From a virus (lineage: Duplodnaviria > Heunggongvirae > Uroviricota > Caudoviricetes): a stretch of 15,331 nucleotides of DNA. Made by a program: the position numbers and the translations under genes. The notes under the pieces are model-generated. The model was not told the DNA's origin. It worked only from the letters and a program-made list of their open reading frames with translations, and searched no databases. Below are positions 1 through 13,926 of the stretch, one piece after another. The stretch's first letter is position 1. Each line of letters begins with the position of its first letter. Where the stretch lies: IMG/VR virus record IMGVR_UViG_2718218172_000006; one strand, written 5' to 3'.

Positions 1-987
1 TCACTTATTAAAATGCCCCCAACGGAAATACATGTCACATGCCATCATAAAATCGTTATGCCAGAGGCATCGACAATGGAAAAAATAGTAAATTAAGCAC
101 GGTACATAGCAGAGTAAAAAATAGGCTTCAAACCAAATCCGCCATTCCACAAGCGTTGCCAATACCGACACCAGCGTAATCCACATCATTTCAATAACCA
201 GCAATATGAATAACCGAAGCCAAAGCGGCTTGGCAAAAAAGGTCGACAACGCATTTTCACTGGAGAAAAACAGATCGATTTCCTGCAAAAAAAGCCTGCC
301 CAGAAAAGCGTACCGCTTGGAGAAGCGCAGAAAAAACAGATTAATCGCCAACACTACGCCACAAAGAATGAGCAATGCAATTATCGATTTAAACGTTAAC
401 CACTGCCCCTCTGTCACAAAAGAATCACTGTTACGTAACGGGCTGATAGTAAGCAGGTTAACAACCGTTGAGATGCACACCGAAAGCAGCACATAGCGAG
501 TCAGACTTTTATATTTTACTTTTTTCGCTACTGAAATAGCGACCTGCTTGACATAACTGGTGCGGATCATCCGAAACAGCAGAAAGATGACCAACGGCCC
601 AAGTAACGAAATCAGGAACAGCGCATATAACGAGGGTAGAAGCTGGTATAGCCCCCAACTCATTGCACTCAACATGATTAACGACAGAAATCCTGCCACC
701 AGAGGTTGTGTAAGAAATAATTCTATTTTGTGGTTCTGCTTTTTCTTAAACCACGAAAAATCGATATTCTTCGTGACGCATTTATAAGCCCAGTACGCCT
801 TGAGATCAAAAATAAAATTATACAGCACCAGGGCCAGAATCCCACTAACGACACCAATATCCTCTGATGGAAAAGTAAATCCTGCATTTTTCCAATAAAA
901 GCCTATCAGAATAAGTCCAATAGCATAAATGTATATCAGATTTCGTTTATCCTGAAAGCGAATAAAAGTTAAATAATCAGGAATCAT
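1..987 (-). CDS. polytopic integral membrane protein, function unknown (328 aa)
   Basis: Complete ORF in the six-frame track with stop at 1-3. Its ATG overlaps the stop of the upstream acyltransferase fragment (ATGA-type coupling at 984-987). The translation is long hydrophobic stretches separated by K/R-rich loops, with A+T-rich codon usage. Family not recognisable by eye. Confidence 0.55.
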
Positions 988-1512
988 TTGAATACCTTTG
1001 CATCACTAAATGCTTTACGACAATGCATAACTCGTTGCTGATCCACGCCAGCAAAATCATTTAACATATTCCCCAAATAGGGCTTATTACTTATTTCAAG
1101 GAAAGCTACCGGGGTTGGCATATTCAGAAATGTATCGAGAGATTCAGTCCATTTCACCGTATGGGTTAAGTGTAATGAGAGATTTTCTTTGATAATTGAC
1201 GGAGCGACCTCGCTTTTTGCTGTTACGTTCATCAGAACCTGATGCTCTGGCGAAGCGATATCCAGTCCGGCAAGATAATCGCGCATTGCCTGAACGCCGT
1301 CTTCCATCAAACGCGTGTGCCAGGCACCGCTCACACCGAGTTTAACCGGTTCGTATCCAGCGGCCATCAGCAGCGTGGCAAATTCATTCAACGAGGCCTG
1401 CGTTCCCCCAATAACCTGCTGGCGCGGCGTGTTATCACAGCTAATATCCAGCGCAATGCCTGATTCCGTAATCATCGTCTGCAGTTGTTCGCGGTTGATG
1501 CCTTTAACCGCC
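984..1512 (-). pseudogene. FabD-like malonyl-CoA:ACP transacylase, C-terminal fragment truncated by IS3
   Basis: The 163-aa track ORF (984-1475) resembles the C-terminal half of FabD-type acyltransferases (GVSGAWHTRLMEDG, VKWTESL). My manual translation shows the frame stays open upstream of the annotated Met as far as the IS3 end at 1513, where the first in-frame stop lies inside the IS. The N-terminal half of a normal ~300-aa enzyme is absent. Confidence 0.6.
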
Positions 1513-1577
1513 TGATCTTACCCAGCAATAGTGGACACGCGGCTAAGTGAGTAAACTCTCAGTCAGAGGTGACTCAC

Positions 1578-1877
1578 ATGACAAAAACAGTATCAACCAG
1601 TAAAAAACCCCGTAAACAGCATTCGCCTGAATTTCGCAGTGAAGCCCTGAAGCTTGCTGAACGCATCGGTGTTACTGCCGCAGCCCGTGAACTCAGCCTG
1701 TATGAATCACAACTCTACAACTGGCGCAGTAAACAGCAAAATCAGCAGACGTCTTCTGAACGTGAACTGGAGATGTCTACCGAGATTGCACGTCTCAAAC
1801 GCCAGCTGGCAGAACGGGATGAAGAGCTGGCTATCCTCCAAAAGGCCGCGACATACTTCGCGAAGCGCCTGAAATGA
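1578..1877 (+). CDS. insE: IS3 transposase OrfA (InsE-like)
   Basis: Track ORF 1569-1877 begins at a GTG; the likely true start is the ATG at 1578, giving [31 protein letters not shown]..., 99 aa. This matches IS3 OrfA as I remember it. Confidence 0.88.
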
Positions 1878-2136
1878 AGTATGTCTTTATTGAAAAACAT
1901 CAGGCTGAGTTCAGCATCAAAGCAATGTGCCGCGTGCTCCGGGTGGCCCGCAGCGGCTGGTATACGTGGTGTCAGCGGCGGACAAGGATAAGCACGCGTC
2001 AGCAGTTCCGCCAACACTGCGACAGCGTTGTCCTCGCGGCTTTTACCCGGTCAAAACAGCGTTACGGTGCCCCACGCCTGACGGATGAACTGCGTGCTCA
2101 GGGTTACCCCTTTAACGTAAAAACCGTGGCGGCAAG
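1874..2136 (+). CDS. insF: IS3 transposase OrfB (InsF-like), N-terminal part only
   Basis: Track ORF 1874-2257 ([32 protein letters not shown]...) overlaps the orfA stop in the -1 frame (ATGA), as in IS3 family elements. The translation becomes X from 2137 because of the N-run, so only the N-terminal part is real sequence. Confidence 0.82.
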
Positions 2137-2236
2137 NNNNNNNNNNNNNNNNNNNNNNNNNNNNNNNNNNNNNNNNNNNNNNNNNNNNNNNNNNNNNNNN
2201 NNNNNNNNNNNNNNNNNNNNNNNNNNNNNNNNNNNN
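2137..2236. other. assembly gap (100 N)
   Basis: Run of exactly 100 n characters; sequence either side is unrelated in composition. Confidence 0.99.
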
Positions 2237-2505
2237 CACTACAGCAGAGCCATGTAGACAACATCCCCTCCCCCTTTCCACCGCGTCAGACGCCCGTAGC
2301 AGCCCGCTACGGGCTTTTTCATGCCCTGCCCTAGCGTCCAAGCCTCACGGCCGCGCTCGGCCTCTCTGGCGGCCTTCTGGCGCTCCTGCTGCGGCGTCCG
2401 CTCGTGGGCCGTGGCGCGGGTCCGCGCGCCGGCCTCGTGCGCCTGGCGCTCGCGGGCGAGGTCCAGGGCGGCCGTCTTCACGTTCTGCCTTGCGCAGATG
2501 AGATA
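2237..2505. other. G+C-rich flank outside the transposon terminal repeat (probably plasmid backbone)
   Basis: Visibly G+C-rich sequence outside the 38-bp IR. The four overlapping track ORFs here are most likely chance frames. Part of it (…CGCCCGTAGCAGCCCGCTACGGGCTTTTTCATGCCCTGCCCTAGCGTCC…) reminds me of broad-host-range plasmid backbone sequence; this is unverified. Confidence 0.3.
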
Positions 2506-2543
2506 GGGGAGCCCGCAGAACTCGGAAAAAATCGTACGCTAAG
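2506..2543. repeat. 38-bp terminal inverted repeat of a Tn21-family transposon (tnpA end)
   Basis: GGGGAGCCCGCAGAACTCGGAAAAAATCGTACGCTAAG at 2506-2543, close to the Tn501/Tn1721-type IR as I remember it. The tnpA stop codon (2539-2541) lies inside it, as is typical for this family. Confidence 0.8.
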
Positions 2544-5505
2544 GTTTTCCGAGCTGCCGCAGCGGCCTGAATTTCCCGTCTTCCAGCTTGCGGCTTTGCC
2601 GCCAAACGTAATCGCCGGTCAGGTTGATGTGCTCCCAGCCCAATGGCGAAAGGTATTGCAGTAACTCAGGATTAACTGGCTTGCCTGCCTCTTCTCGGGC
2701 CTGGGTCGCGCGCTCCAAGTACACGGTGTTCCACAACACGATGGCGGCCGTCACCAGGTTGAGGCCGCTGGCCCGGTAGCGCTGCTGCTCGAAACTCCGA
2801 TCCCTGATCTCGCCGAGGCGGTTGAAGAACACCGCCCTGGCCAGGGAGTTACGCGCCTCGCCCTTGTTCAATCCGGCATGCACGCGGCGACGCAGTTCCA
2901 CGCTTTGCAGCCAATCGAGGATGAACAGCGTGCGCTCGATCCGACCCAGCTCGCGCAGAGCCACGGCCAGGCCGTTCTGGCGCGGGTAGCTGCCAAGCTT
3001 GCGCAGCATCAGCGATGCGGTGACGGTGCCCTGCTTGATCGACGCGGCCAGCCGCAGAATCTCGTCCCAGTGAGCGCAGACGTGCTTGATGTTCAGGGTT
3101 CCGCCGAGCATTGGACGCAGCGTCGGGTAGTCTTGGACGCTATTGGGCACATACAACTTGGTTTCACCGAGGTCGCGGATGCGCGGCGCGAAGCGGAAGC
3201 CCAGCAGGTGCATCAGGGCGAAGACGTGATCGGTGAAGCCAGCGGTGTCGGTGTAGTGCTCCTCGATCCGCAGATCGGACTCGTGGTACAGCAGACCGTC
3301 GAGCACGTAGGTGGAATCACGCACGCCTACATTCACCACGCGGGTGCTGAACGGCGCGTACTGGTCAGAGATGTGGGTGTAGAACAGCCGTCCTGGCTCG
3401 CTACCGTACTTCGGGTTGACGTGGCCGGTGCTCTCGCCTTTACCGCCGGCACGGAAACGCTGGCCATCGGAGGATGAGGTGGTGCCGTCACCCCAGTTGG
3501 CGGCGAAGGCATGCCGGAACTGGCTGTTGACCAGCTCGGCCAGGGCCGTCGAGTAGGTTTCGTCACGGATGTGCCAGGCTTGCAACCAGGACAGCTTGGC
3601 GTAGGTCATGCCCGGACTCGACTCGGCCATTTTGGTCAGGCCGAGGTTGATGGCATCGCCCAGGATCGCCGTTAGCAGTAGCGTCCGGTCTTTCGCCTGT
3701 GCGCCATCCTTCAGGTGCGTGAAGTGGCGGGTGAAGCCCGTCCATTCATCCACATCCATCAGCAGCTCGGTGATCTTGATGCGCGGCAGTAGCTGGCTGG
3801 TCTGGTCGATCAGCGCCTGCGCGGTGTTGGGCACCGCGGAATCCAGCGGGGTGATTTTTAGCCCGGACTCGGTGAGGATGGCATCGGGTAGTTCGTTGTC
3901 CTTTGCCAGTCGGGTGACAGTGGCCAGCTGCTCGTCCAGCAGCTGCAAACGCTCTTCCAGGTACTGGTCGCTGTTCGGGTTGATCGCGAGTGGCAGCGCC
4001 TGTTCCCGCTTGAGTGCGGCGAATTTCTCGGGAGGCAGTAGGTAGTCATCGAAGTCGCGGAACTGCCGCGAGCCTTTGACCCAGATGTCGCCGGAGCGCA
4101 GCGCGTTCTTCAACTCGGACAAGGCGCAGATTTCGTAGAAGCGCCGGTCGATGCCTTCCGGGGTGATCACCAGCGGTTTCCAGCGCGGCTTGATGAAGGC
4201 GGTCGGTGCGTCGGAGGGCACCTTGCGCAGATTATCGGCATTCATCTCGCGTAGGGTCTGAACGGCATCCAGCACGGCTTGCGCTGCCGTCGCGGCTCGG
4301 AGCTGAAGCACCTCCAGAAAGGCTGGGGTGTAGCGGCGTAGCGTAGCGAAGTTCTCGCTGACCAGGTGCAGGTGGTCGAAGGCTTCCGGCCGGGCCAGCA
4401 GCTCGGCCTCAGTGACACTCTGGGTGAACTCGTCCCAGGGAATGACCGCCTCGATGGCGGCGAACGGATCGTCACCGGACTCTTTAGCGTCCAGCAGGGC
4501 CTGGCCGATCTTCGAGTACAGGCGCACCTTGTCATTGATCGCTTTGCCCTGCTTCTGGAACTGCTGCTGATGCTTGTGTTTCGCGCCACTGAACAGCTTG
4601 ACCAGGATGCGGTCGTGCAGATCAACCAGTTCATCGATCACGGTCGCGGTGCTTTCCAGTACCACGGCGACCAGCGTGGCATAGCGCCTCTCCGGTTCGA
4701 ACTTGCCGAGGTCTTGTGGCGTCATCTGCCCGCCCTCGCGGGCGAGCTTCAGCAATCGGTTCTGGTGGATGTGCCGGCCGAGGCTGTCGGGAAGGCCCAC
4801 CAGTTGGAAAATCTTCAGCCGCTCGATGTGCTCGATCATGTGCCGCGAGTTCGGCTTCAGCGGTGATTGCCGCAACCAGGTCAACCAAGTGCTGTTGCTG
4901 CCGGCCTTAATGGTGAGCAGTTCGTCGAGCTTGGCGTGATGCGATGGGTTCAACGGCTCGATCAGGGCGCGATAGACCCGCCGATTGGCGCGTGCAATGG
5001 CCTCCGAACACGCCCGGTCAATAACGCTCAGCGTCGGCAGGATGCGCCGCTTCTGGCGCAAGCTCTCCAGCGCCTGCCCGGCCAGCAGCAAGCCCTTGTC
5101 GGTCTGCTGGGCCAGCTCGGTCAACTCGCGCACCAGGGCGCGGAAGTCCGACAGACCGAACGGGGCCAGTTGCAGGTAGGTGCGCAGTTCCAGAGCGTGC
5201 TCGCGGCGGGTCACGTCGCGCTCACCGTACTTCGCCCAACTCGCGGGGTCGGCTTGGACTTGCTTGGCCACCCACTGGATCACGGGCTCGGGTAGCGCCG
5301 TGTCGTTGCCCAGCGCATAACCAGGGTAGCGCAGCAGGCAGAGCTGCACGGCGAAGCCGAGGCGGTTGCCATCGCCCCGCCGTTGACGGATCAGGGATAG
5401 GTCGGAGTCGTTGAAGGTGTAGTAGCGGATCAGGTCATCCTGGCTTTCTGGCAGCGCAAGCAGGGTGTCGCGCTCCGTAGCCGAGAGAATCGAGCGACGC
5501 GGCAT
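2539..5505 (-). CDS. tnpA: Tn3-superfamily (Tn21 subgroup) transposase TnpA, 988 aa
   Basis: 988-aa ORF starting [37 protein letters not shown]..., with conserved blocks I recall from Tn21/Tn501 TnpA (e.g. [41 protein letters not shown]). Length matches the family. Confidence 0.95.
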
Positions 5506-5508
5506 GGT

Positions 5509-6069
5509 TCAGTCGTCCGTGCGAAGGTACTGGTAGAGGGTTTCACGGCTGATGCCGAACTCGCGTGCGAGCTGAGCCTTCGGCTCGCCGGCAGCGGCCC
5601 GCTGCCGCAACGTGATGGCTTGATCGTCGGAGAGAGCTTTCTTGCGGCCCCGGTAAGCACCGCGCTGCTTGGCCAGGGCGATGCCCTCGCGCTGCCGCTC
5701 GCGGATCAGGGCGCGCTCGAACTCGGCAAAGGCCCCCATGACCGACAACATGAGGTTGGCCATGGGCGAGTCCTCGCCGGTGAACACCAACCCCTCCTTC
5801 AAGAACTCGATGCGCACGCCGCGCTTGGTCAGCCTTTGCACCAGACGGCGCAGATCGTCGAGGTTGCGCGCCAGGCGATCCATGCTGTGCACCACCACGG
5901 TATCGCCTTCGCGGACGAATCCGAGCATGGCTTCCAGCTGCGGGCGCTGGGTGTCCTTGCCCGAGGCCTTGTCGGTGAACAGCTTGCCGATCTCGACCTG
6001 CTCAAGTTGGCGTTCCGGGTTCTGGTCGTAACTGCTGACCCGAACGTAACCGATGCGTTGTCCCTGCAA
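5509..6069 (-). CDS. tnpR: serine recombinase (resolvase) TnpR
   Basis: The track gives 5509-6123 (204 aa), but the conserved resolvase N-terminus starts at QGQRIGYVRVSS. A TTG at 6067-6069 is preceded by GGAGG, giving a ~186-aa protein typical of Tn501/Tn1721 TnpR. The start is uncertain; the ATG at 6123 is the alternative. It sits 3 bp upstream of tnpA on the same strand. Confidence 0.88.
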   Translation of the reverse strand: MQGQRIGYVRVSSYDQNPERQLEQVEIGKLFTDKASGKDTQRPQLEAMLGFVREGDTVVVHSMDRLARNLDDLRRLVQRLTKRGVRIEFLKEGLVFTGEDSPMANLMLSVMGAFAEFERALIRERQREGIALAKQRGAYRGRKKALSDDQAITLRQRAAAGEPKAQLAREFGISRETLYQYLRTDD

Positions 6070-6260
6070 GATGCCTCCATAGGCTGGATGGGCGGTAGGG
6101 CTTACGTTGGTTTTTGGTTCCATTGCGCCCTAAGCCTTGAATTTGTCAGGTTGGAATCTATGACCTTGGCAAGCATGTGTCAAAGAATGTGAAAGCAGAC
6201 TCTATTCTGACGGCGCAGTGTCGTTTTCAGAAGACGGCTGCACTGAACGTCAGAAGCCGA
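6070..6260. promoter_or_regulatory. res (resolution) site region and tnpR promoter, approximate extent
   Basis: By position: in Tn21-family elements the three-subsite res region lies immediately upstream of tnpR. Sequence shows repeated TGTCA-containing dyads (TGTCAGGTTGG…, CATGTGTCAAAG…). Sub-site boundaries not determined. Confidence 0.45.
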
Positions 6261-6502
6261 CTGCACTATAGCAGCGGAGGGGTTGGATCCATCAGGCAAC
6301 GACGGGCTGCTGCCGGCCATCAGCGGACGCAGGGAGGACTTTCCGCAACCGGCCGTTCGATGCGGCACCGATGGCCTTCGCGCAGGGGTAGTGAATCCGC
6401 CAGGATTGACTTGCGCTGCCCTACCTCTCACTAGTGAGGGGCGGCAGCGCATCAAGCGGTGAGCGCACTCCGGCACCGCCAACTTTCAGCACATGCGTGT
6501 AA

Positions 6503-6602
6503 NNNNNNNNNNNNNNNNNNNNNNNNNNNNNNNNNNNNNNNNNNNNNNNNNNNNNNNNNNNNNNNNNNNNNNNNNNNNNNNNNNNNNNNNNNNNNNNNNN
6601 NN
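6503..6602. other. assembly gap (100 N)
   Basis: Run of 100 n characters. Confidence 0.99.
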
Positions 6603-6607
6603 GTCTC

Positions 6608-6763
6608 TTACTCCTCAGGTTCGTAAGCTGTGAAGACAGCGACCTCCGTCTGGCCGGTTCGGATTCGTACCTCGCAGAGGTCTTTCCTCGTTACCAGTGC
6701 CGTCACTATGACGGTTAAACAGATGACGATCAGGGCGATTAACATCGCCTTTTGCTGCTTCAT
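6608..6763 (-). CDS. hokD: Hok/Gef-family small membrane toxin (HokD/RelF-like), 51 aa
   Basis: Not in the track (under 60 aa). My manual translation gives MKQQKAMLIALIVICLTVIVTALVTRKDLCEVRIRTGQTEVAVFTAYEPEE, stop at 6608-6610, with AGGAGA upstream of the ATG. It lies 71 bp downstream of relE, as in the relBEF locus. Confidence 0.85.
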   Translation of the reverse strand: MKQQKAMLIALIVICLTVIVTALVTRKDLCEVRIRTGQTEVAVFTAYEPEE

Positions 6764-6834
6764 AGCCTGCTTCTCCTGTCAACGCAAAGCAGAAGTGTCA
6801 CCTTCGGTGCGAAACAGAGATGTCATGCTTTGGT

Positions 6835-7122
6835 TCAGAGAATGCGTTTGACCGCCTCGCTATATACTTCCGAGCGTTCTCTTTTCCCAACAGAAATCAC
6901 GAAAACGACAACTTTCTCGTCTATAACCTGGTATACAAGGCGATAGCCTGAAGACCGGAGCTTAATCTTGTAACAATCAGGCATACCACGGAGCTTGTTT
7001 GCTTCAATCCGGGGTGACTCAAGTACTTCAACCAGCTTCTTTTTCAACTGTTCACGTACCGTCGAGCCCAGCTTTCGCCATTCCTTTAGTGCCCGCTCGT
7101 CAAAATCCAGAAAATACGCCAT
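6835..7122 (-). CDS. relE: RelE mRNA-interferase toxin (type II TA)
   Basis: 95-aa ORF MAYFLDFDERALKEWRKLGSTVREQLKKKLVEVLESPRIEANKLRGMPDCYKIKLRSSGYRLVYQVIDEKVVVFVISVGKRERSEVYSEAVKRIL, recognised as E. coli RelE. Confidence 0.95.
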   Translation of the reverse strand: MAYFLDFDERALKEWRKLGSTVREQLKKKLVEVLESPRIEANKLRGMPDCYKIKLRSSGYRLVYQVIDEKVVVFVISVGKRERSEVYSEAVKRIL

Positions 7123-7361
7123 CAGAGTTCATCCAGCGTCACACGTACTGGCTTAGGATTACGAAGCCGTTCTTTCACTATCTCCACAAGTTCAGCATCT
7201 TCATCACTCAGGAGTGTCTGTTTGAACGGCAAGCGTTCATTGTCAGCGATATACTCGAGCATGAGACGAAGCGCTTCAGAAGGAGTTACACCCATTTTTT
7301 CAAGCGCGGCGTAAGAACGCGCTTTAAGTTCATCGTCAATACGCAGGTTAATGCTACCCAT
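7122..7361 (-). CDS. relB: RelB antitoxin
   Basis: 79-aa ORF MGSINLRIDDELKARSYAALEKMGVTPSEALRLMLEYIADNERLPFKQTLLSDEDAELVEIVKERLRNPKPVRVTLDEL, recognised as E. coli RelB. It overlaps the relE start by 1 bp. Confidence 0.95.
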   Translation of the reverse strand: MGSINLRIDDELKARSYAALEKMGVTPSEALRLMLEYIADNERLPFKQTLLSDEDAELVEIVKERLRNPKPVRVTLDEL

Positions 7362-7425
7362 GTCTTACACCTCTTGTAATTACAAATGTCATTACAAGTA
7401 TCGCACTACAACATGCTTAGGGCAA
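7362..7425 (-). promoter_or_regulatory. relBE promoter/operator region (relO-like hexad repeats)
   Basis: Immediately upstream of relB the minus strand reads …TTGCCCTAAGCATGTTGTAGTGCGATACTTGTAATGACATTTGTAATTACAAGAGGTGTAAGAC-ATG. The palindromic TTGTAAT/ATTACAA repeats are consistent with the RelB-RelE operator. Confidence 0.55.
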
Positions 7426-7691
7426 GTCACGAAGGAAGTCAGAAAGTAGTCGTAAGAACGGTGATCACTGTCCGCTTTGTGCCAGGAGCAGCCATTGCTA
7501 AGTCCATCCTGTATTGTGCAGGTCAGCTCGTTTTTAAAGAGTCCGGCCATCATCTTACTGGTACAGACACCATATACTTTGTGACGGTCAGGCTACATAT
7601 GCACAACTCAACTTATTCATCTATTTTTTGCTTTAGCATGTCAGTGTTGCTTTCTCGTCGGCGGGTGAGCGGTGACCTGACCTGTCGATAA
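7386..7691 (+). CDS. ydfV: hypothetical protein (YdfV-like ORF), doubtful
   Basis: 101-aa track ORF between relB and flxA, the position and length of K-12 ydfV as I remember it. It overlaps the relBE promoter and has an odd composition, so it may not be a real gene. Confidence 0.3.
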   Translation: MSLQVSHYNMLRASHEGSQKVVVRTVITVRFVPGAAIAKSILYCAGQLVFKESGHHLTGTDTIYFVTVRLHMHNSTYSSIFCFSMSVLLSRRRVSGDLTCR

Positions 7692-7843
7692 AGGAACGTA
7701 ACACGTTTTATGCAACACCCGCATGCGGCAGAAAATTATTGCCGAACGTTTACCCCTGTCAACAAGCTTTACTTTCTGAGGCGCGCCAGCCCGCGAGGAA
7801 AACAATCTGAACATCAAACAATTAATGACACAAGAAATACGAT

Positions 7844-7870
7844 TAAAGATTTTTTTGTGCATGCCGATAG
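7844..7870 (+). promoter_or_regulatory. sigma-28 (FliA) class-3 flagellar promoter of flxA
   Basis: TAAAGATT (7844-7851), 11-nt spacer, GCCGATAG (7863-7870), against the sigma-28 consensus TAAAGTTT-N11-GCCGATAA. AAAGGAG ribosome-binding site at 7880-7886, ATG at 7894. Confidence 0.7.
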
Positions 7871-7893
7871 TGCTTTTTTAAAAGGAGAAATCT

Positions 7894-8226
7894 ATGTCTG
7901 TCACAATTCAGGGAAATACCTCAACCGTTATTTCAAACAACTCCGCCCCGGAAGGAACATCAGAAATAGCCAAAATCACAAGACAAATTCAGGTGCTGAC
8001 TGAAAAGCTTGGGAAAATCTCATCGGAAGAGGGGATGACGACACAGCAGAAAAAAGAAATGGCTGCATTGGTACAGAAGCAAATTGAAAGCCTCTGGGCT
8101 CAACTGGAGCAGTTGTTAAGGCAGCAGGCAGAGAAAAAGAATGAAGACGCGACAGTTCAGCCTGATAAAAAAGAAGAGAAAAAAGACGATACAAATACCG
8201 CTGGCACCATTGATATTTACGTCTAA
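7894..8226 (+). CDS. flxA: FlxA (FliA-regulated protein), 110 aa
   Basis: 110-aa ORF MSVTIQGNTSTVISNNSAPEGTSEIAKITRQIQVLTEKLG…, recognised as E. coli FlxA, with a sigma-28 promoter just upstream. Confidence 0.85.
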   Translation: MSVTIQGNTSTVISNNSAPEGTSEIAKITRQIQVLTEKLGKISSEEGMTTQQKKEMAALVQKQIESLWAQLEQLLRQQAEKKNEDATVQPDKKEEKKDDTNTAGTIDIYV

Positions 8227-8240
8227 GTGACAGCCGTATT

Positions 8241-8264
8241 GTGGCCCTCATCGGGCCACTTTTC
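8241..8264 (+). terminator. intrinsic terminator downstream of flxA
   Basis: GTGGCCC-tcatc-GGGCCAC (7-bp perfect stem) followed by TTTTCGCC, 15 nt after the flxA stop. Confidence 0.6.
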
Positions 8265-8313
8265 GCCATCAGCCTTTTCTTTAAAGACATATTATCTTTG
8301 TATCATTTCTGAT

Positions 8314-10162
8314 AGTTAACATTACAAGATATAAGTAATGGACGCACTCCCAATTAGTCTATTTAAATCGCCACGAGTTTAACTGACAACCCATGATCAA
8401 TTATGAATTGCAACTATTTCTGTAGTCACTTTTGTGGGGACAGTCCACAAAACTGCCAACTTCCGCTTCTTGCTCTTAGCGGACATTAGCATAGGCTATT
8501 TACCATAACGCCTCATTACGCGCACCGCCCAGACTGACTCAGCGCGTTTCTGGCATATCCCCGGTAAAACAAGTAACAAACCACCCGAAAATGAACACCA
8601 GAAACGCGACTTAAGAATCTACCCTATGAATGGATATGCACTCAACCGAATCGATCTTGGTTTCAATCTTTTTTATCGGGATCAGGCTTCTTTTTAGGTA
8701 ACTTCGGGGGCTTAACTTGCTGATGACTTTGCGTTCGGCGCGTAAGCCAGGGATGGTCAGCTTTAGGTTTAACATAGTATTTTGAGCGTAAATCAATACG
8801 GGCATTATCCACTCGTTCATGGACACTCTTTTCATCATCCAGTGGTATAGGCTCCGGGCCATCAACATACTTTTCCCAGCCCAGCGCTTTCCCGTCATAC
8901 AGAACGTTAATTTCACCGTCAAAGTTCTCGCATACAGTAACAACCGAATGCCTAAGTCGATATCCCCGGCCCTCACTGCGTACCTGAAACGCACTGCTTT
9001 TGTACTGGAAAGTGAGATTTTTAGACAGAACGCGCTTCGCCTGTAGGCTGAAGATATAACCCAGTTCCTCTTCAGAATGGTGCACATCAAGATGAGCATT
9101 ATCAGTAGTACGAGGCGACGTAGCGAACCGGTTGTTATAGGCTTCAATAAAGGTCGGCAACCATGCATTTGCTGTTTCAATATCACTGATATTCTGAAGC
9201 CGCATTTCTTTGACCAGCCTGTCCTGTAGTGTCTGATTGGCGCGCTCTACCCGCCCTTTTGCCTGCGGGCTGTTGGCATGGATTGGCTCGATGCCCAGTG
9301 TCTTTATCGCACGAGTGAACTGGGTCAGCTCACCTTCCCGCTCTGGGTTATTTACCCTGAATATACTGTGTCTATCAGAGTAGAGAGCGAGCGGTACGCC
9401 ATGATCATTAAGGTAACCCCGGAGGGTTTCCATGTAAGCCCGGGTTGTTTCAGCAGGCACAAAACGCAACGCCATCAACGCACTGGTGGCATCATCAATG
9501 AAAACGATCAGTGTACATCTGGGGCCTCGATTTTCAAACCAGTCATGAGGTGAGCCATCAATCTGGATCAGTTCACCGTAAGATGGTCGTCGCATGCGGC
9601 GTTGATATATACGGGCAATTTTACGACGGCGTTCACGCCATAACCCCTCTTCTATCATCCACTTTCTGAGAGTTTCAACGGATAAAGATAAACCGTGTAT
9701 CTCGCGCAATTTTTCGCACGCAAACGTAGGTCCAAAATCAGCGTAACGGCCTTTGAGGAGTGAAATTACTGTTGCTCTGAATTCAGTAGAAAAGGAATTA
9801 TTAGGACGCTTTCCACGTCGGTGGGAAACCAGACCAGAAGGCCCTTCATTTCTATACCGTTGCACCAGACGTTTAACCTGCCGAATAGAAATGCCAATGC
9901 GTGCCGCAGCTTGTTCCTGAATAATCTGAAGTCGGTGGAGTTCCTTATGACTCATCGTAACAGTCTCTTTGATCATGAAAAATCCCCCAGAGAATTGTCT
10001 GGGGACATTTTAGAATGGTTCAAAGGGGACATTACAGCTTGGTGTTAACAATAGCCTGCTTCTCCGTGCCTTTCGGCACGTAAGAGGCTAACCTACATGT
10101 GTCTAGCATGAAATTGGCCTCAGATTAATGTTAAGCGTCTTGCAGGACGCGTAATGTTAACT
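8314..10162 (-). mobile_element. insertion sequence carrying the DDE transposase; ends uncertain
   Basis: The only candidate terminal repeats I could find by eye are a perfect 12-bp inverted pair, AGTTAACATTAC at 8314-8325 and GTAATGTTAACT at 10151-10162. The true ends may lie inside this span. No target-site duplication identified. Confidence 0.3.
8663..9976 (-). CDS. DDE transposase, rve/integrase-core type (IS481- or ISNCY-like), 437 aa
   Basis: 437-aa ORF with an N-terminal helix-turn-helix region (IGISIRQVKRLVQRYRNEG) and a D…D…E arrangement typical of rve-fold transposases (LIQIDGSPHDW … LALYSDRHSIF … KGRVERANQTLQ). Lysine-rich C-terminal tail. Exact IS family not identified. Confidence 0.8.
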   Translation of the reverse strand: MIKETVTMSHKELHRLQIIQEQAAARIGISIRQVKRLVQRYRNEGPSGLVSHRRGKRPNNSFSTEFRATVISLLKGRYADFGPTFACEKLREIHGLSLSVETLRKWMIEEGLWRERRRKIARIYQRRMRRPSYGELIQIDGSPHDWFENRGPRCTLIVFIDDATSALMALRFVPAETTRAYMETLRGYLNDHGVPLALYSDRHSIFRVNNPEREGELTQFTRAIKTLGIEPIHANSPQAKGRVERANQTLQDRLVKEMRLQNISDIETANAWLPTFIEAYNNRFATSPRTTDNAHLDVHHSEEELGYIFSLQAKRVLSKNLTFQYKSSAFQVRSEGRGYRLRHSVVTVCENFDGEINVLYDGKALGWEKYVDGPEPIPLDDEKSVHERVDNARIDLRSKYYVKPKADHPWLTRRTQSHQQVKPPKLPKKKPDPDKKD

Positions 10163-10310
10163 GGGGCTTTTCTCTATCTGCCGTTGGTGTCCATGCCCGA
10201 GGCAGATAGCCTCAAGCACCCGCAGTCATTCTACTTAACTAAGATTTCCCCGCAAACCGTTTTTGTCCAGCACAGTAAATATCCAACTAAACCAATGGAG
10301 TTCGCTGTAT

Positions 10311-10490
10311 TTACCGCCAGTATTCAATGCACATGACCGCCATGAACACCCCTAAAAAAAGGGCATTTATATATCCAAATATTAATATCAAAACATCAAC
10401 TTTTTCCATATACCTTGCTGTGAAGATGATGGGCATACATGATGCGAACAACCAGAACGCAACAAACAAAAACTGCAATGCGTTTTTCAT
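10311..10490 (-). CDS. small two-helix membrane protein, 59 aa (track ORF 10311-10529 trimmed to the ATG with a ribosome-binding site)
   Basis: ATG at 10488-10490 is preceded by GTAGGAGGAATA-ATG, a near-consensus Shine-Dalgarno. Product MKNALQFLFVAFWLFASCMPIIFTARYMEKVDVLILIFGYINALFLGVFMAVMCIEYWR has two hydrophobic helices. No family recognised. Confidence 0.5.
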   Translation of the reverse strand: MKNALQFLFVAFWLFASCMPIIFTARYMEKVDVLILIFGYINALFLGVFMAVMCIEYWR

Positions 10491-10674
10491 TATTCCTCCT
10501 ACAATCAATGTGCAATTACATTTAAACACACCTCAATTTGGCCGGACATATAAATATCTAAACCAGAAAAAATCACTTACATAGCGTTACAAACTCTTTA
10601 GTCTAAAGGTTCATCGTAAAACATTCCCCATACTTATCAGTCCGTTCCGCGCCAGGTAGCTCATTGCCTTATCT

Positions 10675-10704
10675 GGCAACCTGTAATCAGGTTTCCGCTT
10701 TTTC
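10675..10704 (+). terminator. candidate intrinsic terminator (plus strand)
   Basis: GGCAACCTG-taat-CAGGTTTCC (9-bp stem, one mismatch) followed by GCTTTTT. No convincing plus-strand gene upstream, so the terminated transcript is unknown. Confidence 0.3.
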
Positions 10705-11642
10705 AGTTGGCTGGTCGTTTAACCGACATAGTTAATCCATTAATCTAGTTGCCGGATGTTGGTGGATTTTCGCGTTTTAGTTGTTCATAAAAGTGCACAG
10801 CTTTAACCAGTTCTTCTGATGTAACTGGGACTGGTGAGGCAGTGAATAAGGCCTGAATTTGATAGTTCGGCCTGTCGTTACAATCCTCTTTTTTCGGTAC
10901 ATATTTCCAGTCACCAGACCACTACTTCCCCTGAAAGTCCGTAACGCCTTTTTTCACGTAGCGATATCGCCATGCCACTGGTTTTGCTTGCCCCGCCGTT
11001 TCATGCCCTTCCTGATAATTAATCTCGCTCATTCATCGCCCCACTCATCACAATATGCTTCGACCGGAGTTTTTCCCGCTTCATAGTCATCACGCTAGGA
11101 TTCGACATCAGCAGCACTTCCACCGCGTAACTCACCATAGTCCATTAATAGTTCATCCCGCTCTTCAAAACTGATGTTATATTTAGCTGAACAAAAATCA
11201 GCCACTTTGTTCTTCCTCATCGTCTTTTATTTCGTGGTATGAGTAATTGCAGTAGTTAAAGAAAATTTCTTATGCTCCGTCATGAATTTCCTCAGGTGTT
11301 GCGTCATCGTCCACTTCGAATACATCCTCAAAATCTCCACCAGCTATTCCCGTTTCAATAATAATTTTGAACTTTCGCATTTCACTACCGCCCTTTCGGG
11401 CGGCCTCCTGATGTTCTGAGGGTGCAGAAATCCATCCGGTTAAGGATTAAATTTTATTTACAGAACTGAATTTAATTATTCAGATATACGTATCTGTAGC
11501 CTTACGAATCTACTCACTGGATGCCTCTTTCATAAAAATAATCCAGTGGGTTTTATCGTTTTTTCCCTGTTCGTTGACAGATAACAGGTTTTCTGTCTGT
11601 CAGTGCCAGAATCTGGCTTACCGGTATTTGCGTTTCATTCCA

Positions 11643-11999
11643 TTAAAAAATCAGAACGCCGTGCGGCCTCAACACCCGAAAGGCTTCTTTAAATCTCTGT
11701 CGCGAATCATCACGCCAGGCATCTTTATTCAGCCGTCCATATTTCTTTCCCATCCAGGCGTTATCACCAACACTCTCAAGATGCGGAGGGTCTAATACAA
11801 CCATCGAAAAAGATGCGTCTGCAAATGATAATGCACGAAAATCTGCGATAATGTCAGGGCTGATAATCAAGCGTCTCCCATTGCGTAATGTGTATCCTTC
11901 TTTTCTGATATCGCTGAATATCGCCCGTTCGTCAGACTTATCGAACCAGAACATGCGGCTGCCACAGCACATATCAAGAATGGTTGCCGGTGCACTCAC
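11643..11999 (-). CDS. DNA N6-adenine methyltransferase-like protein, short (118 aa), possibly truncated
   Basis: An N-terminal SAM-binding-like motif (LDMCCGSRMFWFDK) is followed by a DPPH motif (VVLDPPHLE), resembling the DPPY/DPPW catalytic motif of amino-methyltransferases. The GTG start overlaps the stop of the upstream gene by 4 bp. The frame stays open for 29 more codons beyond the TAA stop, suggesting a nonsense mutation or an unusually short enzyme. Confidence 0.5.
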   Translation of the reverse strand: MSAPATILDMCCGSRMFWFDKSDERAIFSDIRKEGYTLRNGRRLIISPDIIADFRALSFADASFSMVVLDPPHLESVGDNAWMGKKYGRLNKDAWRDDSRQRFKEAFRVLRPHGVLIF

Positions 12000-12418
12000 T
12001 GCGCCACGTCCTGAAAATTACCCTGATAGAAAGCCAGTATGCGCTGCATAACTTCGCTCTTCCGGCACTCGCGACAGATTATGTTTAGGCGACTGTCGTA
12101 GCGACGTATTTCTCCGTCAGGTGATGACCAGATAAGGTCCGGATCAACCACAGCAGGTTTCTTCACCTTTGCCCTCGAGAGTTTTTTGCGGGCGTTTTGC
12201 CAGTCCTTACGCGCCTGTTCAGAGGGGAATAACCCGTAGCCGGAGTTGTATACATCGCCACTGGCTACCAGCTCTCTGGCAAGAACGCTCATCAGATATC
12301 TAGTCGCACCTGTTTTAGCTTCCAGTTGCCGTAACGTCTCACGGCCGCTCTGGCGCACGAGTTCCACCACCTGCCATTTAATTTTTTCCCGCTCTTCTTG
12401 TGTAAAAACTTTTGCCAC
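11996..12418 (-). CDS. hypothetical prophage protein with a putative helix-turn-helix (140 aa)
   Basis: 140-aa track ORF with a GTG start. It has an HTH-like segment (ETLRQLEAKTGATRYLMSVLAREL) and a basic central region, and is translationally coupled to the downstream methyltransferase-like gene. Family not recognised. Confidence 0.55.
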   Translation of the reverse strand: MAKVFTQEEREKIKWQVVELVRQSGRETLRQLEAKTGATRYLMSVLARELVASGDVYNSGYGLFPSEQARKDWQNARKKLSRAKVKKPAVVDPDLIWSSPDGEIRRYDSRLNIICRECRKSEVMQRILAFYQGNFQDVAQ

Positions 12419-12458
12419 AAGTCCCCCTTAAAATTACCTCATGACCTGAAATCAACAC

Positions 12459-13424
12459 TTATCCTCTGAAACCAGGCGGAATTTCTGTATCCGGTTCAGA
12501 AATATGATTAACACAACGCTGTACAGGTGAACGTCCCAGGCGGATGACCAGTTCGTCCCATTTTTCGCGGAGCTTTGACGGGCTCATGATGTTTTTTACC
12601 CAGAATGGATCTCGCTGAACCCGACCAAACATTTCGCAAATTTGTCTGTGGCTTCTGCCATCCAGCATCCGCATTGTGCGCACGTCATTGGCCCAGGCAG
12701 TCCAGTTAGGCTCTTTTGGTCGCATGATCTCGCCATCATCACTGGCTGCCTGTTCGTAGAGACCCACGATCCGCCCCCAGATCCACTGCGCACACGCCAA
12801 ATCCTCCCTGCTACCCCACTGGCGTTTTTTCGCACTAAACACAACCGCGTCGGAGTTCCGGGTTAAAAAATCCTGTTCAGTCGTCTGCGGGTCCGGTTGC
12901 GAAGCTTCCGGACGAAAAGTGTTTTTATTCTCTGTAGTAATCTCTGTTGTATTCTCTGTAAGATCATCAGGCCATTTTGACCCGATGACATTGGGTCGTT
13001 TTGAACCAATGGAGCGTTTCATTTTGACCTCTTCCATCGTGTCATTTTGACCTGATGGAGCGGCGCATTTTGAACCGATGGATTCGCTCAATTTGCCACC
13101 ATCTAAAAGCTCGCTCCCATAGTTGATCGTGTAGAAATTGGTCATATCGCGCTTTGATTTATTGAGCTTTTCACAACGCAAAAGCCCCAGCGTTTTCAGA
13201 CTTGCAAACGCGCGCTTTAACGTTGACTCTGACCAGAATGGGAACTGTTCCAGCCATTGTTCCGTTGTGTTATAAATCCAGCGAACACCATCACATTCCA
13301 TGCCGGAGTTGGTATCTCTCAACCAGTAGTGCAGTTGTTGCAAAACAATGGCTTCGTTTAAGCCAATTTTCATTGCCAGCTGCGTGTTTATAACCAGTGG
13401 GCGTTCAGCAAAAAGAAGGCTCAT
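12459..13424 (-). CDS. lambda O-like replication initiator (replisome organiser) with an embedded candidate origin
   Basis: Track ORF 12459-13478 trimmed to the first ATG (13422-13424). It sits where a lambdoid O gene would, downstream of the Cro-like dicC. The N-terminal region looks like a DNA-binding domain, and the central linker is encoded by five direct DNA repeats followed by an A+T-rich stretch, as in ori-lambda. This is a functional inference; similarity not verified. Confidence 0.6.
   Translation of the reverse strand: MSLLFAERPLVINTQLAMKIGLNEAIVLQQLHYWLRDTNSGMECDGVRWIYNTTEQWLEQFPFWSESTLKRAFASLKTLGLLRCEKLNKSKRDMTNFYTINYGSELLDGGKLSESIGSKCAAPSGQNDTMEEVKMKRSIGSKRPNVIGSKWPDDLTENTTEITTENKNTFRPEASQPDPQTTEQDFLTRNSDAVVFSAKKRQWGSREDLACAQWIWGRIVGLYEQAASDDGEIMRPKEPNWTAWANDVRTMRMLDGRSHRQICEMFGRVQRDPFWVKNIMSPSKLREKWDELVIRLGRSPVQRCVNHISEPDTEIPPGFRG
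12973..13083. repeat. five iteron-like direct repeats (~23-bp period) inside the O-like gene
   Basis: Plus strand: cATTTTGACCCGATGaca (12973), cGTTTTGAACCAATGGAG (12997), tcATTTTGACCtcttcca (13019), tcATTTTGACCTGATGGAG (13042), gcATTTTGAACCGATGGAt (13065). The adjacent A+T-rich 12901-12960 contains ATTCTCTGTA twice. Confidence 0.6.
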
Positions 13425-13926
13425 AATTCCATCCAGCTTTTTGTTGGTATTGCTGTCGATACGCAAGTTTGAAAGCAATTGCTTTTTCTATAAGTTCGTC
13501 AGTTTCACGATCCACTACGGCAGGATCAGCAAAAAGCAGTCCGGACTCCACCACATCGCCATATTCTTTGTTTAACCCGGCGATCATGCACGTGATGCTT
13601 TTTCCGTCAGTAATTTCACGATACAACCTGAAATCATTAATCCGGATAGCCTCCATAATTGCAGGCACTAGCGCCGTGAACTTTTCACGCTTATCCCTGG
13701 TGTCGATAGCCTTCCAGCGTTCAAATATCTTCACTCGATTAACGCCAAGCGCTCGCTGATCAATCGCGCCACCTTCATATGTGACACGCTGAACATCGAT
13801 GTTCGGGCGCTCTTTCAAAGCCCAGAATGCTTCAGTGATTAATATCGTCGCCTGCTCCTGTGTCATTCCTGGTCGACATATCCAGGCATCCAGAGCCTCA
13901 CGAGCCTGTTCAGGAGTGATTTTCAT
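13405..13926 (-). CDS. hypothetical prophage early protein (173 aa)
   Basis: 173-aa ORF starting at ATG 13924-13926. It overlaps the dicC stop by 17 bp and the O-like gene start by ~20 bp. It sits where a lambdoid cII-like gene would; no family recognised. Confidence 0.5.
   Translation of the reverse strand: MKITPEQAREALDAWICRPGMTQEQATILITEAFWALKERPNIDVQRVTYEGGAIDQRALGVNRVKIFERWKAIDTRDKREKFTALVPAIMEAIRINDFRLYREITDGKSITCMIAGLNKEYGDVVESGLLFADPAVVDRETDELIEKAIAFKLAYRQQYQQKAGWNYEPSFC

Follow-up and report, generated by a model that had tools for sequence, protein, structure and literature searches.

A putative IS1202-family transposon carrying relBE at the hokD ribosome-binding site of a Qin-like prophage

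Transposases of the IS1202 family of insertion sequences (ISs) are recognised by a DDE triad with an extra DD pair and a glutamine at position E+7 (Siguier et al., bioRxiv 10.1101/2022.12.17.520857). In that work, members of the ISTde1 subgroup are described as cargo-free and without target specificity, with TGT ends, a conserved motif around position 20, a single transposase of 400-500 aa combining helix-turn-helix and DDE domains, and 15-17-bp duplications; no targeting is reported in the main text for other subgroups than ISAba32. Members of the ISAba32/ISAjo2 subgroup, including the passenger-carrying tISKpn21, make 3-6-bp duplications at XerC/D dif-like sites. ISEsa1 (ISfinder; Enterobacter/Cronobacter sakazakii) is catalogued as 1,609 bp (PMC10132070), has been reported with 15/22 terminal repeats and placed in a small subgroup of its own, and is listed in the supplement of Siguier et al. 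just before the IS1202-subgroup sheet, with no data on ends or duplication; Harmer & Hall, with a 1.6-kb definition of ISEsa1, found no detectable target duplication. For the relBEF locus of the Qin prophage in Escherichia coli K-12, relB, relE and hokD are given as co-transcribed (Gotfredsen & Gerdes 1998, as cited in PMC5120126), and relBE is stated in a 2019 review (PMC6379469, citing Ramisetty & Santhosh 2016, 10.1093/femsle/fnv238) to have integrated into hokD from plasmids. In this study, we analysed a stretch of 15,331 nt from the Caudoviricetes record IMGVR_UViG_2718218172_000006 of IMG/VR, hereafter the window, which holds a transposase gene beside flxA and relBE in a Qin-like prophage.

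Positions 6777-10050 of the window are very probably one transposon of the IS1202 family, 3,274 bp in length, with relBE, ydfV and flxA as cargo and a 15-bp duplication at the hokD ribosome-binding site. The features on which this reading depends are as follows.

6762-6776, no strand: target-site duplication, copy beside the right inverted repeat, ATAGCCTGCTTCTCC; same as 10051-10065, single copy in the empty site L010
6777-6802, plus strand: right inverted repeat (IRR), TGTCAACGCAAAGCAGAAGTGTCACC; matches the left inverted repeat at 19/26 positions
10025-10050, minus strand: left inverted repeat (IRL), TGTTAACACCAAGCTGTAATGTCCCC; set at the divergence point of four independent contexts
10051-10065, no strand: target-site duplication, copy beside the IRL, ATAGCCTGCTTCTCC
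8663-9976, minus strand: ISEsa1 transposase gene, 437 aa; NCBIfam NF033594 and alignment
6608-6763, minus strand: hokD, Hok-family type I toxin gene and insertion target; Pfam HOK_GEF PF01848, E=1.2e-23, annotated hokD in identical genomes
10050-10221, minus strand: orphaned hokD leader/sok region; Rfam RF01794 sok, 104.1 bits, E=3.6e-23, model 1-157/157

The window is 98% identical over 647 bp to E. coli CP53 (L010), which is without the element and in which the hokD start codon runs straight into the sequence found from 10051 on in the window. L010 holds the 15-mer once, and the surplus of the window over it is the 3,274 bp of 6777-10050. The duplicated 15-mer, read as its reverse complement GGAGAAGCAGGCTAT, comprises the hokD ribosome-binding site, the spacer and the 'AT' of the ATG. 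In many other E. coli genomes both flanks likewise match as one place of 132 bp, the length expected of an empty site, and an uninterrupted 301-bp segment of hok plus leader was found in 4,020 genomes. Element and flanks (at least 80% of 6700-10120) are carried by 760 of 5,426 complete E. coli genomes, and K-12-like genomes carry the first 63% of the same interval.

The left end is also marked by comparison with plasmids of Enterobacter, Phytobacter and Serratia, in which identity upstream of the transposase start begins exactly at TGTTAACACC, position 10050; a second motif, AATGTCCCC, lies 24 nt further in. The IRR begins TGTCAACGC at 6777, ends in TTGACA when read outward, has its second (G/A)TGTCA motif about 24 nt further in, and was found in identical form at 20+ loci. 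Both ends thus share an ATGTC(C/A) motif placed 24 nt inward, and both repeats start with TGT and are imperfect, as is characteristic of the IS1202 family (about 23-29 bp, 5'-TGT); the 15-bp duplication lies within the 15-17 bp of the ISTde1 subgroup. The flanks of the element show no self-similarity within the window and are therefore not duplicated phage DNA.

The 437-aa open reading frame (ORF) at 8663-9976 had been taken for the DDE transposase of a mobile element in the first-pass annotation, correctly, and had been left without a named IS family, although it can be classified. It matches NF033594 (transpos_ISNCY_2, 'ISNCY family transposase') with 456.4 bits against a cutoff of 250, residues 14-368 covering model positions 7-365 of 368. 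In plasmid tblastn searches it has hundreds of copies at 97.9% identity, annotated as 'IS1202-like element ISEsa1 family transposase', and near-identical copies occur on plasmids of Klebsiella, Enterobacter, Serratia and Phytobacter. The reference protein WP_004196353.1, named ISEsa1 family at NCBI, has 446 aa and 97.9% amino acid identity to the window copy. In an alignment with 11 relatives the catalytic residues D140, D161/D162, D201 and E244, together with Q251 at E+7, are intact. On this sequence basis the transposase is that of ISEsa1, a member of the IS1202 family formerly filed under ISNCY, the name ISEsa1 being assigned through NCBI's name for WP_004196353.1 and its relatives.

Two further features belong to this gene and its start.

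9915-9928, minus strand: site of a 27-bp in-frame deletion with a short direct repeat on either side; removes ESINRHITQ
9984-10005, minus strand: stem-loop CCCCAGA...TCTGGGG just before the transposase start codon, within the left end

The nine residues ESINRHITQ missing from the window transposase would stand directly before the helix-turn-helix, in the N-terminal DNA-binding region, and element forms with the deletion (3,274 bp) and without it (3,301 bp) were sampled about equally. The stem-loop, as judged from its position, might limit transposase expression from outside transcription. NCBI's annotation pipeline PGAP breaks the intact ORF up into 'ydfW' (8663-8812) and a pseudogene named 'ISNCY transposase', which runs from 8933 to an upper end of 9955 or 9976 depending on which of the two annotated records is taken; this split seems to be an artefact of the K-12 ydfW protein serving as reference.

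Inside the element, two conserved modules enclose a segment of variable cargo.

6777-7489, no strand: conserved right-hand module of about 713 bp, with IRR, relE, relB, the relB upstream region and the first ~100 nt of ydfV
6835-7122, minus strand: relE toxin gene, passenger; Pfam ParE_toxin PF05016, E=2.2e-13, and annotation
7122-7361, minus strand: relB antitoxin gene, passenger; Pfam RelB PF04221, E=1e-32, and annotation
7386-7691, plus strand: ydfV, passenger; 5' part within the conserved right module
7490-8457, no strand: lineage-specific cargo segment, with 3' ydfV, flxA, the 8422-8460 palindrome and the left arm of a 12-bp inverted pair
7894-8226, plus strand: flxA, passenger; Pfam FlxA, E=2.3e-14
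8458-10050, minus strand: conserved transposase module, 1,593 bp (1,620 bp without the 27-bp deletion)

In the orientation of the transposase, the order is IRL, transposase, cargo (flxA and part of ydfV), relB-relE module and IRR. The transposase module is 99.7% identical to plasmid copies, and homology downstream of the gene stops at 8458. The right-hand module is 96-99% identical in elements with unrelated cargo (L011, L013, L015, L016, L019, L023, L028 and L030). The segment 7490-8457 has no homology to what other elements hold between their two conserved modules, where different genes stand, and ydfV has no Pfam match. The relB and relE ORFs adjoin and share base 7122, as in type II toxin-antitoxin pairs of the relBE kind, and relE is transcribed outward, toward the IRR and hokD. 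Comparison with L013, L016, L019 and L023 gave about 99% identity in the relBE-IRR module where the transposase modules are only about 90% identical, which suggests, at the level of sequence, that modules have been swapped by recombination at fairly fixed boundaries. The view that an insertion had separated flxA and the toxin-antitoxin genes from the replication genes is thus reversed: flxA and relBE are cargo inside the element, and it is hokD that has been split from its sok/mok leader.

A wider survey, in which one genome per species, metagenomes and viral contigs were scanned, yielded 21 distinct combinations of duplication and length, among them at least 11 different perfect duplications, which are 13-16 bp long and in most cases 15-16, and elements that measure 2.3-12.8 kb; the elements lie mostly beside at least 5 different Hok proteins. 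The aligned elements with these ends share the transposase module of about 1.6 kb, and all but two from Scandinavium also share the relB-relE-IRR module of about 713 bp. The Phytobacter plasmid pMRY16-398_1 carries a 12,843-bp unit, IRL-transposase-ncrYCBA-chrBA-other genes-relB-relE-IRR, with a perfect 15-mer duplication of its own, GGAGAAGTCAGCTAT, and adjoining an R1-type hok gene. Other cargo variants hold a cation-efflux (CDF) transporter with cytochrome b561, a LysR regulator with small membrane proteins, arsenic-resistance genes (by an ArsC match, the remainder being read from ORFs), or a nested IS110-family element. Cargo-free relatives with 60-63% protein identity, namely ten from Hahella (about 1.45 kb each) and others from Chromatiales (1,364 and 1,437 bp), are simple ISs with 15-16-bp duplications and a homologous IRR (...TTGACA), which shows the repeat beside relE to be the genuine right end. 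Among the surveyed loci, tandem or nested copies were seen as IRR-duplication-IRL in L161 and in Hahella L032, the IRL follows right after a short repeat in L027, and in L026 an inversely oriented copy lies at a hok start.

As judged from the alignment with L010, where the sok leader is contiguous with hokD, the insertion parted hokD from its sok/mok leader, now found 3.3 kb away on the far side of the IRL. In the window the Hok ORF and its leader are separated by the 3,274-bp element, the sok match abutting the IRL and hokD standing directly downstream of the IRR. Because the insertion duplicated the ribosome-binding site, hokD retains one. By the same comparison, the placing of hokD directly downstream of the outward-reading relB and relE is the relB-relE-hokD ('relBEF') arrangement of K-12. 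A second hok gene was looked for on the orphan side (10051-10600) and the candidate was rejected, the region being a hok leader with only a 72-aa ORF. This ORF (10311-10529, minus strand), just past the orphan sok leader, is hydrophobic by eye, has no Pfam match and probably encodes a membrane protein.

K-12 MG1655 is 100% identical to the window over 6603-8847 and resumes at 13647, and thus K-12 is the window sequence minus 8848-13646, a 4.8-kb deletion after the same insertion. The missing interval contains most of the transposase gene, the IRL, the sok leader, a DUF7167 pseudogene, a methyltransferase, a DUF977 gene, a replication-region gene and part of ydaT. The earlier view that K-12 retains only a remnant of the gene agrees with this, as K-12 matches the window up to 8847; on sequence, ydfW/'intK' is the 3' remnant of the transposase gene left by the deletion, and the ydfX pseudogene, at its far edge, is the remnant of a ydaT-like gene. 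Therefore, while the relBEF locus of K-12 is identical to the window over 6603-8847, it is without the IRL, most of the transposase gene and the sok leader, and the transposon is not recognisable from K-12 alone. Inactivation of hokD in K-12 was reportedly put down by Pedersen and Gerdes in 1999 to a 'major genetic rearrangement' that removed the upstream regulatory region. The insertion and the 4.8-kb deletion are probably the rearrangement long said to have cost hokD that region. If this reading holds, relB, relE, ydfV, flxA and the 'intK/ydfW' pseudogene of K-12 would be parts of one transposon, giving a textbook locus a concrete origin, and the relBEF operon would have arisen through a transposon landing on the hokD ribosome-binding site.

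The sites of the other copies point to a preferred target. A hok-leader pattern (...GCCGAAAGGCAAGGAGAAG...) was matched by 36 of 53 distinct 30-nt flanks of the IRL, and three further flanks are hok-related by eye (a tandem copy, an inverse orientation and a variant ribosome-binding site), so that about 70% of the distinct insertion flanks are hok leaders. The IRL lies 16-17 nt 3' of GGCA in 27 of the 36 hok-type flanks, against 3 of 17 non-hok flanks in the same register (binomial P=3e-4), and this spacing is kept at two sites with duplications of only 13 or 14 bp. Since each locus has its own duplication in two identical copies, separate insertion events are suggested rather than one ancestral event spread by recombination. 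This pattern would fit a motif-guided, oriented insertion, by analogy with the ISAba32 subgroup, whose members insert at a set distance from Xer sites.

A possible course of events can be outlined. The transposase would bind the TGT-initiated ends, each with two ATGTC(C/A) motifs 24 nt apart, and cut the target with a stagger of about 15 bp. The target would be picked through a GGCA motif, which makes up the 3' half of the hok-leader hairpin GCCGAAAGGCA and stands at a constant 16-17 nt from the junction with the IRL. To judge by ISKpn21, a member of the same family, transposition could plausibly follow a copy-out/paste-in route. Insertion into the hokD leader of a Qin-like prophage duplicated the ribosome-binding site and the first two bases of the start codon. 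For a promoter formed at a circle junction (outward TTGACA at the IRR with a -10 inside the IRL), inspection by eye gave TAACAC as the sole candidate -10, which is weak and leaves a spacer of about 15 bp, and a scan of 6600-10400 for promoter and terminator consensus gave counts not above those of shuffles.

Taken beyond the window, it seems rather likely that ISEsa1-type elements form an unrecognised cargo-carrying class of the IS1202 family, as far as sequence comparison can indicate. Such elements would target hok leaders 16-17 nt from the hairpin GGCA, carry relBE at the right end, uncouple hok from sok/mok and set it behind relBE, and spread genes for metal resistance (ncr/chr, CDF transporter, ars) between plasmids and prophages of enterobacteria, and the catalogued 1.6-kb unit would be a mis-delimited fragment of them. 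If so, the IS1202 family would have hok leaders, besides Xer sites, as targets recognised by sequence, with a possible use in targeted insertion. On clinical plasmids of Klebsiella and Enterobacter the same vehicle carries genes for nickel/chromate resistance, cation efflux and arsenic resistance, and its correct boundaries therefore matter for the annotation of resistance islands. Our literature search found no named transposon, ends or duplication for the relBE-hokD event, the 2016 paper of Ramisetty & Santhosh being known to us through citations only, and nothing linking ISEsa1 to relBE, hok or metal-resistance (nickel/chromate) cargo; the description of a relBE transposon is provisionally regarded as new.

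Compared with the catalogued ISEsa1, the window element shares a transposase 97.9% identical to the proteins that NCBI names ISEsa1, and its transposase module, 1,593 bp long and 27 bp longer before the deletion, is close to the catalogued 1,609 bp. It differs in that the unit bearing the duplication has 3,274 bp, 19/26 repeats, a 15-bp duplication and four passengers, with a transposase 9 aa shorter. A 1,609-bp unit with 15/22 repeats was not found in the window, where the inner boundary gives at best 12/22 and the functional-looking IRR lies at 6777. Choice of the wrong end probably explains the published absence of a target duplication for ISEsa1; if so, this oddity would be resolved and the 15-bp duplication would put the element with the 15-17-bp subgroup of the family. 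With the ISTde1 subgroup the element has in common the TGT ends, the motif around position 20, the type of transposase and the length of duplication, but it has cargo and its kin lie mostly at hok leaders. With the ISAba32/ISAjo2 subgroup it shares the family, an oriented IRL at a fixed distance from a motif that is close to the duplication length, and passengers in some members, whereas the duplication here is about 15 bp, at the hairpin/ribosome-binding-site region of hok leaders, and the passengers are relBE plus variable cargo. The unit also departs from the simple one-ORF IS format of 1.3-2.0 kb of the family, with relE, relB, ydfV and flxA besides the transposase in 3,274 bp; as a passenger-carrying element it fits the 'tIS' category used for tISKpn21.

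The most serious alternative is that a 1.6-kb ISEsa1 (about 8458-10050) is alone mobile and landed beside a pre-existing relBE-ydfV-flxA segment, the IRR-like sequence at 6777 being a relic or coincidence. The published length of 1,609 bp with 15/22 repeats speaks for this, as does the fact that what all copies have in common is the 1.6-kb module. However, the module has no flanking target duplication (none was found at its inner boundary, 8458), as Harmer & Hall also saw for the 1.6-kb definition, and the best ungapped inverted match to the IRL at this boundary is 12/22, against 19/26 at 6777. The whole 3,274 bp are missing at once from the empty site, the two-module layout with perfect duplications recurs with at least 5 different cargoes, and the IRR beside relE is homologous to that of cargo-free relatives. 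We therefore regard this alternative as improbable.

The first-pass annotation had proposed an unclassified IS of about 1.85 kb bounded by the 12-bp inverted pair AGTTAACATTAC and GTAATGTTAACT (8314-8325 and 10151-10162). The pair exists, is perfect and is mildly unusual: when 8200-10400 was simulated 2,000 times with a first-order Markov model, only about 3% of the sequences held a perfect 12-mer inverted pair at least 1 kb apart, although the window pair had been picked post hoc; its arms are nevertheless not the ends of an element. The right arm and the palindrome noted at 10174-10210 lie inside the full-length sok match, in DNA 98% identical in the element-free L010, the left arm lies in cargo, homology to independent ISEsa1 copies stops at 8458 and 10050 and not at the arms, and the pair has no flanking duplication. 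The segment 8314-10162 is thus not a unit and the proposal is extremely unlikely, the more so as it had been said to fall if the ends mapped elsewhere, and comparison with L010 puts them at 6777 and 10050, unrelated to the pair. The two palindromes in the supposed flanks are likewise present without being IS features: TTTTGTGG...CCACAAAA (arms 8422-8437 and 8445-8460) sits at the boundary between transposase module and cargo, and CTATCTGCC...GGCAGATAG (arms 10163-10182 and 10201-10220) is a structure of the sok leader. GTTAACA and ACATTAC occur in the 12-bp arms and are also, on the plus strand, the motifs at and next to the terminus of the IRL; as the right arm belongs to target DNA that is conserved, this sharing is probably a coincidence. 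Equally little credence can be given to the ORF being a non-mobile, integrase-like phage gene that belongs to the Qin prophage, a reading prompted by its K-12 name, intK. Its location in a prophage and a weak Pfam match to rve_3 'integrase core' (E=2.5e-5; besides HTH_29/HTH_32 nothing else was matched in the 437-aa protein) would agree with such a gene, but 'integrase' here denotes the rve/DDE core and not a tyrosine recombinase, the Phage_integrase catalytic domain of which was not found by Pfam in the protein. The full-length match to an IS transposase equivalog model, the near-identical copies on plasmids of four genera, the terminal repeats and the target duplications all oppose it.

Several points weigh against the single 3,274-bp transposon and the wider class as put forward here. 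The entire case is comparative, and no transposition was observed; the window copy itself may be immobile owing to the 9-aa deletion. The reading of the catalogued unit as the transposase module only rests on the published length of ISEsa1 and its published lack of duplication. Certain hok-adjacent copies may be of shared ancestry and not separate events, the many Qin copies are probably the outcome of one or two events, and the hok enrichment could derive partly from selection after insertion and not from target choice. The relBE module is also not universal, as it is missing from Scandinavium L029 and L043, whose transposases are about 80% identical and which have perfect 15-16-bp duplications at non-hok sites; by these sequences, neither relBE nor hok targeting is universal in the clade.

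From 6603 on, the window is a Qin-like prophage with the gene order hokD, relE, relB, ydfV, flxA, transposase, small genes, replication-region block, ydaT, dicC, dicA and ydfABC. Runs of 100 N at 2137-2236 and 6503-6602 mark the window as a scaffold of three contigs, and 1-6502 meets the Qin region only across a gap. On its minus strand the middle contig has, at 2539-6123, genes for a Tn3-family transposase of 988 aa (DDE_Tnp_Tn3, E=5.8e-155) and a resolvase of 204 aa; neither is related to the ISEsa1 element. Other E. coli genomes begin to match at 1512-1513, where the annotated features include an IS3 transposase, and a position near 1512 is probably an IS3 boundary.

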